Source of the DNA: a virus
Lineage: Duplodnaviria; Heunggongvirae; Uroviricota; Caudoviricetes
Length of the DNA: 24,440 nucleotides
Direction: 5' to 3' (one strand)
IMG/VR virus record: IMGVR_UViG_2585427750_000026
The notes under the pieces were generated by a model. That model saw nothing but the letters and a program-made list of their open reading frames with translations. It was not told the DNA's origin and did no database searches. Positions 3,238 to 23,200 of the stretch are shown piece by piece (position 1 is the first letter of the stretch; each line of letters opens with the position of its first letter). A program made the translations under genes and the position numbers.

Positions 3238-3509
3238 GTATTCGTATTGAAATTGGCGAACGTTATGTCGTTACCAGTGACAGCTTTCAGTTTATTCTCC
3301 ACGAGAAAAAGAGAGCGGAAAGCGGTAAAAACGCCGGTCAGGAATGGCTGGCGGTGGTTGGTTATTACCCGAAATTAGGCCAGCTCGTTTCCGGCCTGAT
3401 GCATCACGATATTCTGACCGGAAGCGCAAAATCTTTTGCTGATTTAAACGCGCAGGTTGAGCAACTCAGCAAGCGTTGTTCAGAGGCTTTTGGCTCATAT
3501 GGCCGTTAA
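3234..3509 (+). CDS. Hypothetical early protein (P2 orf83 position)
   Basis: 91-aa ORF, ATGA overlap with the upstream ORF; overlaps the start of gene A by 11 nt. Confidence 0.4.
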   Translation: MSIRIEIGERYVVTSDSFQFILHEKKRAESGKNAGQEWLAVVGYYPKLGQLVSGLMHHDILTGSAKSFADLNAQVEQLSKRCSEAFGSYGR

Positions 3510-5784
3510 AGCCTCCGGGCGTTTTGTCCCTCCGTCAGCATTTACCGCAGGCACCGGTAAGGCGTTTACCGGTGCTTATGCATGGAACGCGCCACGCGAG
3601 GCTGTCGGGCGCGAAAGACCTCTTACACGTGACGAGATGCGTCAGGTGCAAGGTGTTTTATCCACGATTAACCGCCTGCCTTACTTTTTGCGCTCGCTGT
3701 TTACTTCACGCTATGACTACATCCGGCGCAATAAAAGCCCGGTGCACGGGTTTTATTTCCTCACATCTACTTTTCAGCGTCGTTTATGGCCGCGCATTGA
3801 GCGTGTGAATCAGCGCCATGAAATGAACACCGACGCGTCGTTGCTGTTTCTGGCAGAGCGTGACCACTATGCGCGCCTGCCGGGAATGAATGACAAGGAG
3901 CTGAAAAAGTTTGCCGCCCGTATCTCATCGCAGCTTTTCATGATGTATGAGGAACTCTGCGATGCATGGGTTGATGCGCATGGTGAAAAAGAATCGCTGT
4001 TTACGGATGAGGCGCAGGCTCACCTGTATGGTCATGTTGCTGGCGCTGCACGTGCTTTCAATATTTCCCCGCTCTACTGGAAAAAATACCGTAAAGGACA
4101 GATGACCACGAGGCAGGCATATTCTGCCATTGCCCGCCTGTTTAACGATGAGTGGTGGACTCATCAGCTTAAAGGCCAGCGTATGCGCTGGCATGAGGCG
4201 TTACTGATAGCTGTCGGGGAGGTCAATAAAGACCGTTCTCCTTATGCCAGTAAACACGCCATTCGTGATGTGCGTGCGCGCCGCCAGGCAAATCTGGAAT
4301 TTCTTAAATCGTGTGACCTTGAAAACAGGGAAACCGGCGAGCGCATCGACCTTATCAGTAAGGTGATGGGCAGTATTTCTAATCCTGAAATTCGCCGGAT
4401 GGAGCTGATGAACACCATTGCCGGTATTGAGCGTTACGCCGCCGCAGAGGGTGATGTGGGGATGTTTATCACGCTGACCGCGCCGTCAAAGTATCACCCG
4501 ACACGTCAGGTCGGAAAAGGCGAAAGTAAAACCGTTCAGCTTAATCACGGCTGGAACGATGAGGCATTTAATCCAAAGGATGCGCAGCGTTATCTCTGCC
4601 GTATCTGGAGCCTGATGCGCACGGCATTCAAGGATAATGATTTACAGGTCTACGGTTTGCGAGTCGTCGAGCCACACCACGACGGAACGCCGCACTGGCA
4701 TATGATGCTTTTTTGTCATCCACGCCAGCGTAACCAGATTATCGAAATCATGCGTCGCTATGCGCTCAAAGAGGATGGCGACGAAAGAGGAGCCGCGCGA
4801 AACCGTTTTCAGGCAAAACACCTTAACCGGGGCGGTGCTGCGGGATATATCGCGAAATACATTTCAAAAAACATCGACGGCTATGCACTGGATGGTCAGC
4901 TCGATAACGACACCGGCAGGCCGCTGAAAGACACTGCAGCGGCTGTTACCGCATGGGCGTCAACGTGGCGCATCCCGCAATTTAAAACGGTTGGCCTGCC
5001 GACAATGGGGGCTTACCGTGAACTACGCAAATTGCCTCGCGGCGTCAGCATTGCTGATGAGTTTGACGAGCGCGTCGAGGCTGCACGCGCCGCCGCAGAC
5101 AGTGGTGATTTTGCGCTGTATATCAGCGCGCAGGGCGGGGCAAATGTCCCGCGCGATTGTCAGACTGTCAGGGTCGCCCGTAGTCTGTCGGATGACGTTA
5201 ACGAGTACGAGGAAGAAGTCGAGAGAGTGGTCGGCATTTACGCGCCGCATCTCGGCGCGCGTCATATTCATATCACCAGAACGACGGACTGGCGCATTGT
5301 GCCGAAAGTTCCAGTCGTTGAGCCTTTGACTTTAAAAAGCGGCATCGCCGCGCCTCGGAGTCCTGTCAATAACTGTGGAAAGCTCACTGGTGGTGATACT
5401 TCGTTACCGGCTCCCACGCCTTCTGAGCACGCCGCAGCCGTGCTTAATCTGGTTGATGACGGTGTTATCGAATGGAATGACCCGGAGGTCGTGAGGGCGC
5501 TCAGGGGCGCATTAAAACACGGCCTGCGAACGCCAAACCGTCAGCAAAGAAACGGAAGCCCGTTAAAACCGCATGAAATTGCGCCATCGGCCAGACTGAC
5601 CCGGTCGGAAAGAATGCAAATTACCCGTATCCGCGTTGACCTTGCTCAGAACGGTATCAGGCCGCAGCGATGGGAGCTTGAGGCGCTGGCGCGTGGCGCG
5701 ATCGTAAATTATGACGGGAAAAAATTCACGTATCCGGTCGCTGATGAGTGGCCGGGATTCTCAACAGTAATGGAGTGGACATAA
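3499..5784 (+). CDS. A: Rolling-circle replication initiation endonuclease gpA
   Basis: 761 aa from the ATG at 3499 (MAVKASGRF...), matching the P2 A N-terminus as I recall it. Contains the HxH-type motif (PHWHMMLF) and candidate catalytic tyrosines (GYIAKYISKN). The ORF-track start at 3457 is an upstream in-frame alternative. Confidence 0.9.
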   Translation: MAVKASGRFVPPSAFTAGTGKAFTGAYAWNAPREAVGRERPLTRDEMRQVQGVLSTINRLPYFLRSLFTSRYDYIRRNKSPVHGFYFLTSTFQRRLWPRIERVNQRHEMNTDASLLFLAERDHYARLPGMNDKELKKFAARISSQLFMMYEELCDAWVDAHGEKESLFTDEAQAHLYGHVAGAARAFNISPLYWKKYRKGQMTTRQAYSAIARLFNDEWWTHQLKGQRMRWHEALLIAVGEVNKDRSPYASKHAIRDVRARRQANLEFLKSCDLENRETGERIDLISKVMGSISNPEIRRMELMNTIAGIERYAAAEGDVGMFITLTAPSKYHPTRQVGKGESKTVQLNHGWNDEAFNPKDAQRYLCRIWSLMRTAFKDNDLQVYGLRVVEPHHDGTPHWHMMLFCHPRQRNQIIEIMRRYALKEDGDERGAARNRFQAKHLNRGGAAGYIAKYISKNIDGYALDGQLDNDTGRPLKDTAAAVTAWASTWRIPQFKTVGLPTMGAYRELRKLPRGVSIADEFDERVEAARAAADSGDFALYISAQGGANVPRDCQTVRVARSLSDDVNEYEEEVERVVGIYAPHLGARHIHITRTTDWRIVPKVPVVEPLTLKSGIAAPRSPVNNCGKLTGGDTSLPAPTPSEHAAAVLNLVDDGVIEWNDPEVVRALRGALKHGLRTPNRQQRNGSPLKPHEIAPSARLTRSERMQITRIRVDLAQNGIRPQRWELEALARGAIVNYDGKKFTYPVADEWPGFSTVMEWT

Positions 5785-6236
5785 TGGCAAAAATTCACGA
5801 GGTAAAGCTGCACGCAAAATATTTCGACCTTGTGCTGGAAGGAAAGAAACGCGCAGAGTTTCGGAAAAATGACCGTAATTATGAGCGCGGGGACACGTTG
5901 ATTTTGCATGAATGGGTGCAGGGTGTGTATACGGGGCGAAAGGTTGAAGCCCGGATAACAGATGTTACTGACCTGTCAGACTGGCTGGAAGATTATGTCT
6001 TGCTAAGTATTGAGCTGCTTAATACAGGTGCATATGAGATTGTGAACTGGAAAGAACTTAGTGAGCGTGGTCTGGTATTCAGAATTAATCATGAAATTAT
6101 GCATCAGCTCGGCCTTGCTGTTATGTATGAACCAGAGACGGGGATGTCTGGCGGGGCAATGGTTGCCACGGATGGAGCATGGAACTATTCAGATGAACAG
6201 ATGGAGCGTGCACAGCAAAACGGGTGGCTTGGATAA
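5784..6236 (+). CDS. ASCH/DUF3850-like protein (extended orf91-like)
   Basis: 150 aa from the ATG at 5784 (TAATG overlap with the A stop). N-terminus EVKLHAKYFDLVLEGKKRAEFRKNDRNYERGDTLILHEW resembles the ASCH-like DUF3850 fold by pattern. Lower GC than the replication genes. Confidence 0.5.
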   Translation: MAKIHEVKLHAKYFDLVLEGKKRAEFRKNDRNYERGDTLILHEWVQGVYTGRKVEARITDVTDLSDWLEDYVLLSIELLNTGAYEIVNWKELSERGLVFRINHEIMHQLGLAVMYEPETGMSGGAMVATDGAWNYSDEQMERAQQNGWLG

Positions 6237-6702: not shown

Positions 6703-6767
6703 TTGACACAGGTTGTTGTGTGTGGTAAGGCTGTATCCCTTTGGCATTCAAAATGTAGGAGGCAACC
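6703..6767 (+). promoter_or_regulatory. Putative promoter and strong RBS for the peptidase gene
   Basis: TTGACA at 6703..6708, AT-rich stretch upstream (TTATATTAAT 6678..6687), and Shine-Dalgarno AGGAGG at 6757..6762, 5 nt before ATG 6768. The -10 element is not clear-cut. Confidence 0.35.
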
Positions 6768-7244
6768 ATGAGCATCGCAGCTAAAAATCTGCTTAATCGC
6801 TATTGGGATCGCCGACTACCTGTCGATCCGTTTAAGCTCGCCGCAGCGTGGGGTGCAAGAGTGGAGCCGCTCAGGGAACCAGCGAATGGGTTAAGTGGTT
6901 CAGCCGTAATAGAAAATGGCATACCTTATATTTATTTTAACTCAAATGAACATTACAACCGCCAACGCTTTACTGTAGCGCATGAGCTCGGTCATCATGT
7001 TTTAGGGCATACTCAAGACGGAGAATATCATCGCGATATTGTAGGCAACTACTCAACTGGCATCCGTGATTATCGTGAAATAGAAGCTAACCAGTTTGCT
7101 GCAGAGCTATTGATGCCGGAAGAGGCCATTCGTCAACTAGTGTCGCGTATAGGCGTTGATAGTACATTACGTTTGGCAAACATATTTAACGTTTCTGAGG
7201 CTGCTATGCACTGGCGTCTTAAAGCGTTGGGTATGGCTTACTAA
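6768..7244 (+). CDS. ImmA/IrrE-family (Peptidase_M78 / COG2856-like) zinc metallopeptidase
   Basis: 158 aa with HEXXH (AHELGHHVLGH) followed by the downstream glutamate motif EANQFAAELLMP typical of ImmA/IrrE peptidases. No fused HTH domain. Strong RBS. Confidence 0.75.
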   Translation: MSIAAKNLLNRYWDRRLPVDPFKLAAAWGARVEPLREPANGLSGSAVIENGIPYIYFNSNEHYNRQRFTVAHELGHHVLGHTQDGEYHRDIVGNYSTGIRDYREIEANQFAAELLMPEEAIRQLVSRIGVDSTLRLANIFNVSEAAMHWRLKALGMAY

Positions 7245-7274
7245 TACCCTCTTTAACTTTTTTCAAACCGGTTT

Positions 7275-7311
7275 AAAATCACCATTATTTTATTAATAAT
7301 GGTGATTTTTT
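7275..7311 (+). promoter_or_regulatory. Perfect 15-bp inverted repeat (hairpin) with T-run immediately upstream of the membrane-protein start
   Basis: AAAATCACCATTATT (7275..7289), loop TTATT, AATAATGGTGATTTT (7295..7309), then TT and ATG at 7312. The right arm contains the only SD-like sequence (GGTGA) for the downstream gene. Confidence 0.5.
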
Positions 7312-7932
7312 ATGGCAGATATCGACCTCTCTGGCCAATCTCCGGCTCAGTCTTCCCAGCCATCCAAAACTTCAACCTTTCCACATCCACCTAGCGATGC
7401 CGATCCAGATATTTTGTTACGTAGAGAAGTGCATGATGGCATGGAAAGGAGGGGAATGCGCTTAGTTTTGTCAGCCACCGTACTTTTTTTTGCCATAATG
7501 TTTTTATGGAAAGGTCTGTATTTCGCTCTCGAAGTCGGAAATGGTTTGCTTGCGGCTAAAAGTAGTATTGTTTCAGCGTTGGCACAAAATGATGAAAAGG
7601 TTGTTTGCGAACCTAAAACTAAATGTATTGAGCCTAAACAGCAGACAATGAAACCTACAGAAAAAACTCCCGGCATGTCAACAAAGGGTGATAGAGTAAT
7701 GCCAAACTTATCTACAGATTGGCTTTCTGCAAGTTCGCTAATTGCCATAGTCGCTTTCATCCTTGGTGTTGGCTTGACGTTAATCCTTACCCTACTTAAG
7801 TCCGCTTTTCATCATCCGACTGATAAAAATCTCAATGAGCAAAAAACAACAGATGCGATTGAGTTGGCGACTCCCTTAAGTGAGTTAATCGCGGGTATTA
7901 TTAATTATCTCAAGAGCAAATTTTCTAAATAA
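7312..7932 (+). CDS. Two-transmembrane-helix membrane protein, unknown function (candidate effector)
   Basis: 206 aa with two hydrophobic helices (LVLSATVLFFAIMFLWKGLYFAL and LIAIVAFILGVGLTLILTLL) separated by a hydrophilic loop of about 70 aa containing two Cys. Lower GC than the phage core. Confidence 0.6.
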   Translation: MADIDLSGQSPAQSSQPSKTSTFPHPPSDADPDILLRREVHDGMERRGMRLVLSATVLFFAIMFLWKGLYFALEVGNGLLAAKSSIVSALAQNDEKVVCEPKTKCIEPKQQTMKPTEKTPGMSTKGDRVMPNLSTDWLSASSLIAIVAFILGVGLTLILTLLKSAFHHPTDKNLNEQKTTDAIELATPLSELIAGIINYLKSKFSK

Positions 7933-8141
7933 CGTCCTCTTGGTTATTTTTTAAATCAGCACCATTAGTGCCGGTTTTTTTATGCTGTTTTACTGTAATT
8001 TCCCTGTTTTTAAGCCGTGCATGCAGCAGGTGCATGGTTTTGCATGCGCAGGAAGTGTCCGTTCTGGCCGAGCACCGGCAGAACGGACGCGGATCCAGAA
8101 CGGTCATGCAACTGCATTCAAACCACCCCATGAAGCGGGCG

Positions 8142-8160
8142 GGCGAGGCGGGGAAAGCAC
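8142..8160 (+). other. cos: cos cohesive-end site (19 nt)
   Basis: GGCGAGGCGGGGAAAGCAC matches the 19-nt P2 cohesive end as I recall it, and sits at the expected position between the accessory region and gene Q. Confidence 0.7.
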
Positions 8161-8329: not shown

Positions 8330-9364
8330 TCAGCCGTTGTCAGTGTCCAGTGAGTAGTTTTTAAAGCGGATGACCTCCTGACCGAGCCAGCCGTTTATCT
8401 CGCGGATCCTGTCCTGTAACGGGATAAGCTCATTGCGGACAAAGACCTTTGCCACTTTCTCAATATCACCCAGCGACCCGACGTTCTCCGGCTTGCCGCC
8501 CATCAACTGAAAGGGGATGCGGTGCGCGTCCAGCAGGTCAGCGGCGCTGGCTTTTTTGATATTAAAAAAATCGTCCTTCGTTGCCACTTCACTGAGCGGG
8601 ATAATTTTAATGCCGTCGGCTTTCCCCTGCGGGGCATAGAGAAACAGATTTTTAAAGTTGTTGCGGCCTTTCGACTTGACCATGTTTTCGCGAAGCATTT
8701 CGATATCGTTGCGATCCTGCACGGCATCGGTAACGTACATGATATATCCGGCATGAGCGCCGTTTTCGTAATACTTGCGGCGGAACAGCGTGGCCGACTC
8801 ATTCAGCCAGGCAGAATTAAGGGCGCTGAGATATTCCGGCAGGCCGTACAGCTCCTGATTAATATCCGGCTCCAGCAGGTGAAACACGGAGCCGGGTGCG
8901 AAGGCTGTCGGCTCGTTGAAGGACGGCACCCACCAGTAAACATCCTCCTCCACACCTCGGCGGGGATATTTTGCCGGTGAGGTTTCCAGTCTGATGACCT
9001 TACCGGTGGTGCTGTAACGCTTTTCCAGAAACGCATTACCGAACACCAGAAAATCCAGCACAAAGCGGCTGAAATCCTGCTGGGAAAGCCACGGATGCGG
9101 GATAAATGTCGAGGCCAGAATATTACGTTTGACGTAAATCGGTGAGCTGTGATGCACGGCAGCACGCAGGCTTTTTGCCAGACCGGTAAAGCTGATCGGT
9201 GGCTCATACCATCTGCCGTTACTGATGCACTCGACGTAATCCAGAATGTCACGGCGGTCGAGTACCGGCACCGGCTCACCAAAGGTGAATGCTTCCATTT
9301 TCGGGGCGCTGGCGGTCATTGTTTTTGCCGCAGGTTGCGGTGTTTTCCCTTTTTTCTTGCTCAT
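8330..9364 (-). CDS. Q: Portal protein gpQ
   Basis: 344 aa, the same length and position as P2 Q; translationally coupled to P (TGATG on the minus strand). Confidence 0.9.
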   Translation of the reverse strand: MSKKKGKTPQPAAKTMTASAPKMEAFTFGEPVPVLDRRDILDYVECISNGRWYEPPISFTGLAKSLRAAVHHSSPIYVKRNILASTFIPHPWLSQQDFSRFVLDFLVFGNAFLEKRYSTTGKVIRLETSPAKYPRRGVEEDVYWWVPSFNEPTAFAPGSVFHLLEPDINQELYGLPEYLSALNSAWLNESATLFRRKYYENGAHAGYIMYVTDAVQDRNDIEMLRENMVKSKGRNNFKNLFLYAPQGKADGIKIIPLSEVATKDDFFNIKKASAADLLDAHRIPFQLMGGKPENVGSLGDIEKVAKVFVRNELIPLQDRIREINGWLGQEVIRFKNYSLDTDNG

Positions 9365-16619: not shown

Positions 16620-17061
16620 GGCGCTGACTGATGCCGTCACGGTGCTGAAAACTAACCCCGATATGCTGCAGATATTCGTGGATAACGGGAGTATTGCCTC
16701 CACGCTGGCGACGTCGCTGTCGTTCGAAAAGCGTTACACGCTCAATGTGATTGTGACCGACTTTACCGGTGATTTTGACCTGCTCATCGTGCCGGTGCTG
16801 GCGTGGCTGCGGGAAAATCAGCCCGACATCATGACCACCGACGAAGGCCAGAAAAAGGGCTTCACGTTTTATGCAGACATCAACAATGACAGCAGCTTTG
16901 ATATCAGCATCAGCCTGATGCTGACCGAGCGCACGCTGGTCAGTGAGGTGGGCGGCGCACTGCATGTGAAGAATATCCCGGAACCTCCGCCGCCGGAGCC
17001 GGTCACCCGCCCGATGGAGCTGTATATCAATGGCGAACTGGTGAGCAAGTGGGATGAATGA
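16594..17061 (+). CDS. R: Tail completion protein gpR
   Basis: 155 aa, P2 R length and position. Confidence 0.8.
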   Translation: MLKPDSLRRALTDAVTVLKTNPDMLQIFVDNGSIASTLATSLSFEKRYTLNVIVTDFTGDFDLLIVPVLAWLRENQPDIMTTDEGQKKGFTFYADINNDSSFDISISLMLTERTLVSEVGGALHVKNIPEPPPPEPVTRPMELYINGELVSKWDE

Positions 17062-17506
17062 GTTTAAGCGTTTTGAAGACCGGCTGACCGGACTGATTGA
17101 GTCGCTGTCACCGTCAGGGCGTCGGCGACTGAGTGCCGAACTGGCGAAACGTCTGCGGCAGAGTCAGCAGCGTCGGGTGATGGCGCAGAAAGCCCCGGAC
17201 GGCACACCCTACGCGCCACGTCAGCAGCAGAGCGTCAGAAAAAAGACCGGTCGTGTTAAGCGAAAAATGTTTGCGAAACTTATCACCAGTCGTTTTTTGC
17301 ATATCCGCGCCAGCCCGGAGCAGGCATCAATGGAATTTTACGGCGGGAAGTCGCCGAAAATCGCCAGTGTGCATCAGTTCGGTCTGTCGGAAGAAACCCG
17401 GAAAGACGGTAAGAAAATTGATTATCCGGCGCGTCCTCTGCTCGGCTTTACCGGTGAGGATGTGCAGATGATTGAGGAGATTATCCTGGCTCACCTTGAG
17501 CGTTAG
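17054..17506 (+). CDS. S: Tail completion protein gpS
   Basis: 150 aa, P2 S length and position; overlaps the R stop. Confidence 0.8.
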   Translation: MNEFKRFEDRLTGLIESLSPSGRRRLSAELAKRLRQSQQRRVMAQKAPDGTPYAPRQQQSVRKKTGRVKRKMFAKLITSRFLHIRASPEQASMEFYGGKSPKIASVHQFGLSEETRKDGKKIDYPARPLLGFTGEDVQMIEEIILAHLER

Positions 17507-17536
17507 TTTTATCCAGGCAGAGGCTGATGCGCAATT

Positions 17537-17571
17537 AAACATTGAGCGGCCATGCTGGTCGCTCAATGTTT
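17537..17571. terminator. Bidirectional stem-loop between convergent S and the AT-rich gene
   Basis: Perfect 12-bp inverted repeat AAACATTGAGCG ... CGCTCAATGTTT with an 11-nt loop, between the S stop (17506) and the minus-strand gene stop (17578). Confidence 0.5.
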
Positions 17572-17577
17572 AGAGGT

Positions 17578-18363
17578 TTATGAGTGATTTTTATTTGATG
17601 CTTTGTATTCTAAAACCTTCTTATTGGCGTAAAAGAATTTTGTATATGACAGGAATATAACCAGACCTGAAGTGAAATAGACGAGGGATAGTATTAATAA
17701 TGCTTTTTTGTGACTGTTATTATCTTTAATCTCCTGGCTTAACCATTCGGAGTCCTCCTCGTTTAGCTGTAAGAGCTTATTGCAGGCGATTTCAGGAAGT
17801 GTGTCTTTTATAAATACGTTTTGCAGTCTCTTGCAATCGGCAAGGCTATAAGTTTTATTAAATTCAACTGCTTTATTTTTGAAGGATAAAAGAACTTTGT
17901 CACTATAAACATAGTACATCATATTTTTATATGGTATGCCTATGGCATCTCTTACTATAGCGGATTGTTTGTTGTGTATATAACATGCGAAGAGAATATA
18001 AATAATACTGGCCAGAATTACAATTATTGTTTTAATTATGTGTGGTGGTTTTGTTATGTCACCCCAGATGCGAGTAAGGAAAAAATACGATGTTTTTAGT
18101 TTTCCATCAATCAGTCCCTGCTGTATCATTCTCACATTTTCAATGCCTGATACATTGATTCCGTTAATTATTTTAAATAGTTGAATGTCGCGCCACTCGC
18201 GGTCAAGTCTTTTTAATTTTTTGTCTGAATATCCAAAATTGAAATAATGTGCAATAAGCCTCATAAGGTTACTTTTACCAAAGCTAAAAAATGCTAATAC
18301 TGCAAAGCTACAAAGGAAAAAAACGATTAGCCCCCACACATTAGTCACATTATAGCTGACCAT
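17578..18363 (-). CDS. AT-rich membrane protein of unknown function (P2 orf30-like accessory gene)
   Basis: 261 aa on the strand opposite the late operons, with a strong SD (AAGGAG). Markedly AT-rich with Lys/Asn/Ile/Phe-rich composition. Three hydrophobic helices (N-terminal, central IIKTIIVILASIIYILFACYI, C-terminal LILSLVYFTSGLVIFLSY). Confidence 0.6.
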   Translation of the reverse strand: MVSYNVTNVWGLIVFFLCSFAVLAFFSFGKSNLMRLIAHYFNFGYSDKKLKRLDREWRDIQLFKIINGINVSGIENVRMIQQGLIDGKLKTSYFFLTRIWGDITKPPHIIKTIIVILASIIYILFACYIHNKQSAIVRDAIGIPYKNMMYYVYSDKVLLSFKNKAVEFNKTYSLADCKRLQNVFIKDTLPEIACNKLLQLNEEDSEWLSQEIKDNNSHKKALLILSLVYFTSGLVIFLSYTKFFYANKKVLEYKASNKNHS

Positions 18364-20872: not shown

Positions 20873-23200
20873 ATGAGCACAAAATTCAAAACCGTTATCA
20901 CCACTGCTGGTGCAGCAAAGCTGGCAGCGGCAACCGCGCCGGGAGGGCGGAAGGTCAACATTACCACGATGGCCGTCGGGGATGGCGGTGGTAAATTGCC
21001 TGTCCCGGATGCCGGACAGACCGGGCTTATCCACGAAGTCTGGCGACATGCGCTGAACAAAATCAGCCAGGACAAACGAAACAGTAATTATATTATCGCA
21101 GAGCTGGTTATTCCGCCGGAGGTGGGCGGTTTCTGGATGCGTGAGCTTGGCCTGTACGATGATGCTGGAACGTTAATTGCCGTGGCGAACATGGCTGAAA
21201 GTTATAAGCCAGCTCTTGCCGAAGGCTCAGGGCGTTCGCAGACCTGCCGCATGGTCATCATCGTCAGCAGTGTGGCCTCAGTGGCGCTGACCATTGACAC
21301 CACAACGGTGATGGCAACGCAGGATTACGTTGATGACAAAATTGCAGAACATGAACAGTCACGACGTCACCCGGACGCCTCGCTGACCGCCAAAGGTTTT
21401 ACTCAGTTAAGCAGTGCGACCAACAGCACGTCTGAAACACTCGCCGCAACACCAAAAGCGGTAAAAGCAGCATATGACCTTGCTAACGGGAAATACACTG
21501 CACAGGACGCCACCACAGCGCGAAAAGGCCTTGTCCAGCTCAGTAGTGCCACCAACAGCACGTCTGAAACGCTCGCCGCAACACCAAAAGCGGTAAAAGC
21601 AGCATATGACCTTGCTAACGGGAAATACACTGCACAGGACGCCACCACAGCGCGAAAAGGCCTTGTCCAGCTCAGTAGTGCCACCAACAGCACGTCTGAA
21701 ACGCTCGCCGCAACACCAAAAGCGGTAAAAGCAGCATATGACCTTGCTAACGGGAAATACACTGCACAGGACGCCACCACAGCGCGAAAAGGCCTTGTCC
21801 AGCTCAGTAGTGCCACCAACAGCACGTCTGAAACGCTCGCCGCAACACCAAAAGCGGTAAAAGCAGCATATGACCTTGCTAACGGGAAATACACTGCACA
21901 GGACGCCACCACCGCGCGAAAAGGCCTTGTCCAGCTCAGTAGCGCCACCAACAGCGATTCTGAAACGCTTGCGGCAACGCCAAAGGCGGTTAAGACAGCG
22001 TATGACCTTGCTAACGGGAAATACACTGCACAGGATGCCACCACAGCGCGAAAAGGTCTTGTCCAGCTCAGTAGCGCCACCAACAGTGATTCTGAAACGC
22101 TGGCTGCAACACCAAAAGCGGTGAAGTCTGCCTATGACAATGCTGAAAAACGTCTTCAGAAAGATCAGAACGGTGCGGATATTCCTGATAAAGGACGCTT
22201 CCTGAGTAACATTAATGTTTACAGCAAAGGTGAAGTGGATAAGAAAAAGGGAATGCGAAAGTATTCGTTTGCAGCCCCTGCAAATGTCGTTGCCGGGAAG
22301 TGGTATCCCGTTATCTTTCGCCGTGCTGCCAGCCTTTCAGGAGAAATGGCATCCCGCGTCGTTATTTCAACTGGTTGTTATAACGGCGATTATGTAATGA
22401 ATAACTGCGAGTTTAATGGCATGGTTATGCCCGGAGGCTGGACCGATCGTGGTTCATATGCGGCAGGTTATTTCTGGACGTATCAGACTAATGAGCGTTC
22501 AATCCATTCCATTGTTACAAGCCTGAAAGATGATGATGTATGTAGTGTTTTTTATGTTGAAGCCAGAGCTTTCCCTGTGCAAATTCTTGCAGAGGAAGGG
22601 CTAACGGTTATTGTTCCGACAGAGGATTATGTCGTCGGTCAAACGACATATAAGTGGGGGGCAACTAATCCCGCTACAGAAAGCACGAACGCACAGGCTA
22701 TTCTGGATTTTAAAAATGGACGTGGTTATTACTGTTCACATCCATTTATTTCCAGCCTTTCAGGAAATGCTGCAACAGCAACGAAGTTAGCGAACGCAAG
22801 AAATATTAATGGTGTCAGATTTGATGGCTCTGCCGATATAAATATTAATACACTGGTATCCAGAAACCGTGTTAATGCATTAGGTGGGAGCGTAAAGGGG
22901 ACACCAGGTATTCAGATGTATGAGGCATACAACAATGGCTACCCAACAGCCTATGGTAATGTGCTTCATCTCACTGGCGTAACCGCAGTAGGAGAGGGTG
23001 AGTTACTTATTGGCTGGAGTGGAACCAGCGGTGCTCATGCTCCGGCATATATTCGTTCCCGACGAGATACCACAGATGCTAACTGGTCTGGATGGGCGCA
23101 ACTATATACAACTGCTCATAAACCCTCAGCGGGAGATGTTGGTGCATACATAGACTGGCCCCCTGAATCTCCAGACAACCAATATCACTTAAATAAGTGA
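20873..23200 (+). CDS. H: Tail-fibre protein gpH, repeat-expanded and 3-prime interrupted by IS2
   Basis: N-terminus [20 protein letters not shown] is P2 H-like. Contains about 5.7 in-frame copies of a 44-aa repeat. The last 16 codons plus stop (23153..23200; the boundary codon at 23150..23152 straddles the junction) are read from the IS2 terminal repeat, so the native C-terminus is missing. Confidence 0.85.
21392..22135 (+). repeat. Tandem 132-bp (44-codon) in-frame repeat array in H, about 5.7 copies
   Basis: Unit KG(F/L)(T/V)QLSSATNS(T/D)[12 protein letters not shown](A/T/S)[18 protein letters not shown] starting at 21392, 21524, 21656, 21788, 21920 and 22052. Copies 2 and 3 are nucleotide-identical, copy 4 differs by one base, and copies 1, 5 and 6 are more divergent. 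Confidence 0.9.

Follow-up and report, generated by a model that had tools for sequence, protein, structure and literature searches.

Between the two genes of a small cassette in a P2-like prophage lies a perfect palindrome of 15 base pairs, and the ribosome binding site of the downstream gene is contained within it. This raises the question of what the element does. A preliminary description of the locus had suggested several answers, i.e. an intrinsic terminator or attenuator placed after the peptidase gene, a structure that sequesters the ribosome binding site (RBS) of a potentially toxic membrane protein until the stem is opened or cleaved, or the binding site of a dimeric protein.

The prophage, the cassette and its hairpin

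The window (the whole 24,440-nt stretch of DNA that was analysed) is a P2-like prophage of E. coli. The integrase is encoded at 1-1011 on the minus strand, the replication endonuclease gpA at 3457-5784 and the portal protein gpQ at 8330-9364 on the minus strand, with the terminase and late genes beyond. We take the sequence GGCGAGGCGGGGAAAGCAC at 8142-8160 to be the 19-nt cohesive end of P2. The same string is found next to cos in the sequences given by Rousset et al. (2022). Given the positions of gpA, cos and gpQ around the cassette, the hairpin is placed in the gpA-cos-gpQ variable region, which in P2 is a hotspot of anti-phage systems (Rousset et al. 2022, PMC9122126). Directly 3′ of gpA is a gene (5784-6236) for a DUF3850/ASCH and DUF7415 protein. 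Many P2-like prophages possess this gene, and the cassettes that follow it differ.

The cassette comprises two genes on the plus strand, separated by a 67-nt spacer that carries the hairpin. The first (6768-7244) encodes an M78 (ImmA/IrrE-type) zinc metallopeptidase of 158 aa with an HExxH motif (Pfam PF06114, E-value 8e-23). It also matches PADLOC capP (3.8e-31) and PHROG 87 (metallo-protease), and its closest relatives of solved structure are CapP (7t5t) and IrrE (3dte). The gene has a strong SD sequence, AGGAGG at 6757-6762 on the plus strand, located 5 nt 5′ of its ATG. The GGAGGC of this SD is invariant in 16 of 16 aligned homologous cassettes and GTAGGAGGC is present in most of them, so that the ribosome site GTAGGAGGC(A/T)ACCATG (positions 6755-6770 of the window, compared with 15 loci) is almost invariant while the rest of the upstream region diverges completely.

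The second gene (7312-7932, plus strand) encodes a membrane protein of 206 aa. It belongs to PHROG 8096 (2e-102), to which no function is assigned, and it has no match in Pfam, PADLOC or NCBIfam. The protein has a disordered N-terminus, two long hydrophobic helices (predicted) and a C-terminal amphipathic helix. The AF2 model is poor (pLDDT 58.5) and contains three helices only, at residues 34-92, 131-165 and 188-204. The family consists of 42 protein clusters in the Enterobacterales.

Upstream of the peptidase gene there is a putative promoter on the plus strand (6703-6731), with a good −35 element (TTGACA, 6703-6708), a 17-nt spacer and a poor −10 element (TAAGGC, 6726-6731). The consensus promoter scan did not call this region, and the TTGAC of the −35 element together with a downstream TG(T/A)GATAAGG block is common to the P2-borne variants of the cassette. 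At the 3′ end of the cassette there is a weak terminator-like hairpin with a T-run (7953-7981, plus strand); at the same place the O121 homologue has a perfect CCGGCAT/ATGCCGG stem followed by TTTT. Searches of Pfam, PADLOC, PHROG and NCBIfam revealed no DNA-binding or helix-turn-helix protein in the cassette.

The hairpin between the genes has a 5′ arm AAAATCACCATTATT (7275-7289), a loop UUAUU (7290-7294) that is free to vary in length and sequence in the homologues, and a 3′ arm AATAATGGTGATTTT (7295-7309), all on the plus strand. The two 15-nt arms are fully complementary and 5 nt apart in a repeat search of the window, of which this is the longest perfect short-range inverted repeat. The stem is AU-rich, with G-C pairs at just 3 of its 15 positions. 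The 3′ arm includes GGUGAU (7301-7306), and the 5′ arm includes its complement AUCACC (7278-7283), which is also part of the anti-SD region of 16S rRNA. A run of six U (7306-7311) follows, which would serve both as the U-tract of a terminator and as the spacer between SD and AUG; its first four U are part of the 15-bp stem, where they are paired with an upstream AAAA. The remaining TT (7310-7311) is followed at once by the ATG of the membrane protein (7312-7314). The preliminary description was therefore accurate in its account of a perfect 15-bp stem with a 5-nt loop, followed by T's and the ATG. It was equally so for the ribosome site, since GGTGA(T) is the sole SD-like sequence in the 20 nt 5′ of the ATG and lies wholly inside the 3′ arm.

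Folding of 7245-7330 with RNAfold, a check proposed at that stage, gave −19.7 kcal/mol against a mean of −8.5 kcal/mol for dinucleotide shuffles (z = −4.36), and none of 200 shuffled sequences was as stable. Folded as DNA the region gives −12.9 kcal/mol (z = −5.7). From the base composition about 2e-4 perfect stems of at least 15 bp with a loop of 3-10 nt are expected in 24.4 kb, and the longest stems in 30 shuffled windows were 7-12 bp.

We note some other repeats in the window. A second hairpin of similar sequence (AAATCGCCGTT-ATGAAA-AATGGTGATTT, 11 pairs including G.U) is found at 2754-2781 on the plus strand, in an early-region ORF of the prophage. There are seven matches to the arm sequence of the hairpin in the window against 0.66 in shuffles, which may be chance. 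An inverted repeat of 17 nt (94% complementary, 3-nt loop) at 17536-17572, between the convergent ORFs 17054-17506 (plus) and 17578-18363 (minus), is likely a bidirectional terminator. Lastly, palindromic motifs AGCGCGAAAAGGCCTT recur every 132 bp (at 21517, 21649, 21781 and partly 21918) inside a 775-aa ORF (20873-23200), and their recurrence over 21517-21931 indicates a tandemly repeated protein segment.

Conservation of the stem in homologous cassettes

Homologous loci were collected from E. coli genomes, plasmids, phages, exact-protein look-ups, IMG/VR and metagenomes. The 43 loci retained (L001-L044, excluding L045 and above), together with the window, provide 25 distinct variants of the spacer. 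These are found in P2-like prophages, plasmids and other islands, and the identity of their membrane proteins ranges from 100% down to 24%. No relatives came from a protein-guided search of the species-representative genomes of GTDB. At every locus for which there is upstream DNA, an M78 peptidase gene of about 160 aa ends some 66-75 nt 5′ of the membrane protein gene.

The preliminary description had made its reading depend on the presence of the palindrome in homologous cassettes. The stem, the GGTG in its 3′ arm and the ATG that ends the T-run are all kept in 25 of 25 variants, as is the CACC of the 5′ arm. The T-run comprises 6-8 T in 24 of the variants, with TTTTAA in the remaining one (L029). 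In the chromosomal relatives, where the membrane protein is 24-29% identical, the stem is AAAGCCACC/GGTGGCTTT. Three metagenome contigs (L039-L041) encode membrane proteins of 237-253 aa that are 24-29% identical, and retain the order of peptidase, hairpin and ATG with a GC-rich stem. The cassettes on these contigs sit 5′ of a gene whose product resembles cation-diffusion facilitators, a likeness judged by eye. Plasmid-borne and some island cassettes have a third co-oriented gene of about 305 aa (L003 3043-3963, L004, L005, L042 3658-4572). It has no Pfam match, is preceded by a small GC-rich hairpin after the membrane protein gene, and is missing from the P2-borne versions.

When the variants are aligned, 91.9% of the cells in paired columns are standard base pairs, compared with 29-66% if the partner column is slid by 1-3 positions. 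Six of the 15 pairs have changed on both sides of the stem. At column pair 15-33, 12 variants have C-G and 10 have U-A; pairs 7-41 and 8-40 change from A-U and U-A to G-C and C-G in the distant clade; and pairs 13-35, 17-31 and 18-30 vary in the L007 and L002 clades. The compensatory changes amount to perhaps five or six independent events. Since the loci are related by phylogeny these counts overstate independence, although their direction is unambiguous. RNAalifold applied to 19 homologues over −130 to +20 finds the hairpin as the only conserved structure. The loop ranges from 5 to about 10 nt, and 10 to 22 nt separate the invariant blocks CACC and GGTG.

The alignment also distinguishes the strand on which the structure forms. 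Ten cells contain G.U pairs on the plus strand that would be A.C mismatches on the other, and only on the plus strand is there a T-tail 3′ of the stem; a transcript of the minus strand continues AAACCGG. These observations, drawn from sequence comparison, support the view that the palindrome is a selected RNA-level stem-loop of the plus-strand transcript.

They also bear on two readings at the level of DNA. The suggestion that the palindrome is an operator for a dimeric DNA-binding protein draws on the perfection of the 15-bp repeat and on the conservation of its ATCACC/GGTGAT half-sites. However, the variation in half-site spacing (10-22 nt) would rotate the halves of a rigid dimeric operator out of register, while the inner arms change in sequence yet remain complementary, with compensatory changes and G.U pairs. 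Moreover the cassette is devoid of a helix-turn-helix or other DNA-binding protein, and the site lies between two co-oriented genes and not at a promoter. This part of the preliminary description is not supported, and an operator is extremely unlikely. Alternatively, the stem might embed a sigma-70 promoter (TTTAAA, 17 nt, AATAAT) that gives rise to a nearly leaderless mRNA for the membrane protein, as 9 of 12 consensus positions are matched in the promoter scan. Yet there are nine such sites in 12 kb, fewer than the 12.1 expected from shuffles, and clades L007, L003 and L039, with their different inner stem, have other sequences in place of the hexamers. As the hexamers are not conserved we reject this reading, which is almost certainly wrong. 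A dispersed repeat of the REP or MITE kind was considered and rejected, as the palindrome is confined to the cassette and is present as a single copy in each of the 3 E. coli genomes, of 5426, that contain it.

The start codon itself requires comment. All 25 variants retain the ATG that adjoins the T-run as the start of the membrane protein. Several public annotations, for example the CDS at 2645-3124 of L006 (NC_070905), and the construct table of Rousset et al. (2022) for protein 2 of plasmid pFR104 (see below), begin instead at the internal Met49 and thereby miss a conserved N-terminus of 48 residues (7312-7458 in the window) and the putative regulatory hairpin. Conversely, where the run contains seven T some gene calls extend the protein upstream into the stem (MVIFFM...). 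In the window variant only, the codons of an invariant Glu-Arg-Arg are GAA AGG AGG, creating an AAGGAGG located 3 bases 5′ of the Met49 ATG (7444-7458). Met49 is thus a possible internal start in this variant, with a product beginning at the first hydrophobic helix. It was rejected as the true start of the family, because the homologues use CGN codons and AAGGAGG is peculiar to the window variant.

Proposed occlusion of the ribosome site and termination

While neighbouring pairs covary, CACC and GGTG never do. This invariance amid covarying flanks indicates a sequence-specific constraint inside the stem, namely the SD. In none of the 25 variants, down to 24% protein identity, is there an SD outside the stem or a start codon farther away. 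Only U's lie between GGUGAU and AUG in the window, and the same arrangement is found in every variant.

The calculated probability that the SD region is unpaired is 0.002 for the membrane protein gene in the window and 0.001-0.11 across the loci, compared with 0.19-0.70 for the peptidase gene. Opening the RBS is calculated to cost on average 19.3 kcal/mol for the membrane protein gene and 11.3 kcal/mol for the peptidase gene, and the former has the greater cost at each of the 15 loci. In the window, which is GC-richer, a value of 19.4 kcal/mol does not stand out, as it is matched at 75 of 849 arbitrary ATGs and at the starts of genes M and O. Thus the opening energy alone proves nothing, and the argument for SD occlusion rests on conservation. 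With the only SD inside the stem throughout, with so low an unpaired probability and with CACC/GGTG fixed, the idea of an RBS-sequestering stem is supported in silico, although the placing of the SD in the stem could be inherited anatomy without a selected function.

The same stem has the anatomy of an intrinsic terminator. An 11-bp lower stem UCACCAUUAUU/AAUAAUGGUGA (UCACC...GGUGA) has a folding energy of −12.1 kcal/mol, with three G-C pairs among the five nearest the tail, and directly 3′ of it is the tail UUUUUUAU, an uninterrupted U-tract. With a discriminant of the d'Aubenton Carafa type (1990), the absolute threshold of which calls for caution, the hairpin scores d = +8.4. Only eight sites are positive when both strands of the window are counted, and the hairpin ranks third among them, below the terminator that follows the portal gene. 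The score is greater than zero in 24 of 25 variants. A separate terminator scan of the window did not list the hairpin, because the maximal stem absorbs four T's. As the stem is AU-rich, termination may be inefficient.

If the hairpin were purely a translational repressor, with negligible termination, the T-run would be an AU-rich spacer or a landing site for S1. The AU-rich stem and the almost fully paired SD are in keeping with this, as is the tolerance of TTTTAA by one variant. Against it, the hairpin is the third-best terminator of the window by score, and 6-8 uninterrupted T's are kept in 24 of 25 variants, including those with positions that are unable to pair with the upstream A-tract. 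An all-T spacer at unpaired positions is more than a mere spacer between SD and AUG would need. We therefore regard repression without termination as unlikely.

We also scanned IMG/VR with the pattern AAATCACC-N(10-22)-GGTGATTTTTT, which yielded at least 120 loci (among them L045-L161, e.g. L071, L102 and L124), about half of them true hairpins. More than 50 hairpins with the AAATCACC...GGTGATTTTTT base were found. In most of these the inner stem is GC-rich and no ORF follows immediately; they are ordinary phage terminators that share the base of the stem. In a few the T-run leads directly into an unrelated ORF; that of L102 has endolysin-like motifs and that of L071 is long and Gly-rich. The use of a 3′ arm as SD, followed by a U-run and AUG, also before unrelated phage ORFs means that the design is generic.

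The wide occurrence of this stem base among ordinary phage terminators, together with the positive scores and the conserved T-run, might suggest that the hairpin is a plain intrinsic terminator of the peptidase unit, and that its overlap with the SD is an accident of a compact intergenic region. But a plain terminator would not require GGTG and CACC to be invariant beside pairs that covary, nor would it keep the SD within the stem and the start codon next to it at 24% protein identity. In addition, the membrane protein gene has no promoter of its own and so depends on read-through of the hairpin. Such an accident is improbable.

The claim of a terminator or attenuator in the preliminary description is thus upheld as regards terminator anatomy and not supported as regards attenuation. 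There is no conserved alternative (antiterminator) pairing in the 130 nt upstream, and the best hit in Rfam is to a microRNA family with an E-value of 0.021, far under the gathering score; an attenuator or riboswitch was rejected on these grounds. The notion that the stem is opened or cleaved to release the gene is likewise not supported, and without a conserved alternative structure or an Rfam match constant damping is the simplest account, with no basis for a switch. An RNA thermometer was discarded because the stem is too stable.

Could the element act on the message in another way? Stable 3′ stem-loops generally protect mRNA, so that the hairpin might protect the 3′ end of the peptidase mRNA; alternatively an RNase III-type cut might uncouple the cistrons, but the stems in the homologues are 9-16 bp, generally short for RNase III. 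In ColE7 the T1 and T2 hairpins have been proposed to stabilize the flanking message (PMC2896534). However, a role in processing or stability leaves the conserved T-run and the invariant SD unexplained. As the principal function it is very unlikely, while being compatible with, and not truly exclusive of, termination and occlusion of the RBS.

We consider it moderately probable, on the comparative evidence, that the hairpin is a constitutive intercistronic stem-loop of the terminator type that also occludes the RBS, keeping the peptidase well above the membrane protein. The dual role is favoured because the constraints of a terminator and those of an SD are both visible. Actual termination and translational repression are what we infer from these constraints, as is the purpose of keeping a potentially harmful membrane protein scarce.

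The dual role would operate in the following manner. The palindrome would be transcribed within a bicistronic mRNA for the peptidase and membrane protein, and fold into a stable stem-loop. Its lower stem UCACC...GGUGA followed by U6 would act as a Rho-independent terminator of moderate strength, so that a good share of transcripts would end, with a protected 3′ terminus, just past the peptidase gene. On those that read through, the GGUGAU SD would be paired with the anti-SD mimic AUCACC and 30S subunits would rarely load at the AUG two bases past the stem. Combined with the strong AGGAGG site that is invariant in the peptidase gene, the hairpin would build a large excess of peptidase over membrane protein into the cassette, and the damping would be constitutive rather than a regulated switch. 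Rho-dependent polarity would be expected in a distal cistron that is not translated, and the U-rich single-stranded flank upstream could offer a standby site or an S1 site, either of which would permit a low level of translation.

Relation to a defence candidate and to known systems

The whole cassette of the window (6703-7981) belongs to the family of pFR104, 'Peptidase + TM'. The peptidase of pFR104 is identical to that of L002, and its membrane protein is that of L002 from Met49 with one extra TQ repeat. This plasmid carries a cassette from the P2 hotspot of E. coli TA280 with its native signals, and is listed among the 'additional tested systems' of Table S2B (PMC9122126). The validated systems are those of Table S2A, and defence was reported for old-tin and three other systems of the P2 hotspot, none of which is pFR104 (PMC9122126). 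In the literature on the peptidase-membrane pair as a defence system we found only this listing as a tested, non-validated candidate. To judge from the hairpin, very little of the membrane protein is probably produced in the native context, and re-tests of the cassette for defence should reckon with a low native output.

A different reading of the hairpin makes it a conditional gate. The membrane protein would be an abortive-infection effector, with its mRNA terminated and masked in uninfected lysogens until the gate is opened by some activity specific to infection. This activity might be that of a nuclease or an RNA helicase, of a phage antiterminator, or of a Rho inhibitor such as P4 Psu. 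If this were so, the cassette would sense infection at the RNA level, and the absence of the natively expressed cassette from the systems validated in the eight-phage test of Rousset et al. (2022) would be explained. We consider such a gate decidedly unlikely. On the constitutive dual-role reading, the hairpin would set how strongly the two genes are expressed relative to each other in a cassette that is carried both in the P2 gpA-cos-gpQ defence hotspot and by plasmids.

The closest parallel for the dual role is provided by ColE7, in which the T1 terminator lies between cei and the lethal lysis gene cel, and only read-through transcripts carry cel (PMC2896534). In both cases a stem-loop is placed between the upstream gene and a membrane-acting distal gene of one operon, and in ColE7 the distal gene is not only confined to read-through transcripts but also damped at translation (PMC2896534), as is proposed here. 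The ColE7 system differs in that the T1 stem does not include the SD of cel, and the repressor of translation is CsrA, which binds GGA motifs (PMC2896534). The stem of the cassette hairpin does include the SD, whereas GGA motifs are absent and no factor acting in trans is implied. The resemblance to T1 is thus functional and not one of homology.

In the hok and tisB mRNAs the SD is sequestered by an internal anti-SD, leading to poor translation of the full-length message. For zorO, an anti-SD in the 5′ UTR is reported to pair with the SD, with poor translation of the full-length mRNA (PMC5397157). As in these type I toxin mRNAs, an anti-SD in the cassette hairpin is paired with the SD of a gene for a membrane protein. 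The type I systems differ in having an antisense RNA as antitoxin, and in that their activation requires a standby site or processing at the 5′ or 3′ end. The cassette gives no sign of an antisense RNA, of processing or of toxicity, and its product, at 206 aa, is larger than a small peptide.

The ordinary phage terminators with AAATCACC...GGTGATTTTTT have the same lower stem and U-tract, but the inner stem of the cassette hairpin is AU-rich, and this hairpin always leads straight into the start of a gene of one family. Finally, in the expression platforms of dual-acting riboswitches and attenuators a single hairpin both terminates transcription and masks the RBS. By contrast, the cassette hairpin has no aptamer, leader peptide, conserved antiterminator pairing or Rfam match. 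The hairpin is a comparatively supported case of terminator anatomy and SD occlusion in one stem-loop; the element is a familiar kind of bacterial gene control, and not a new kind.
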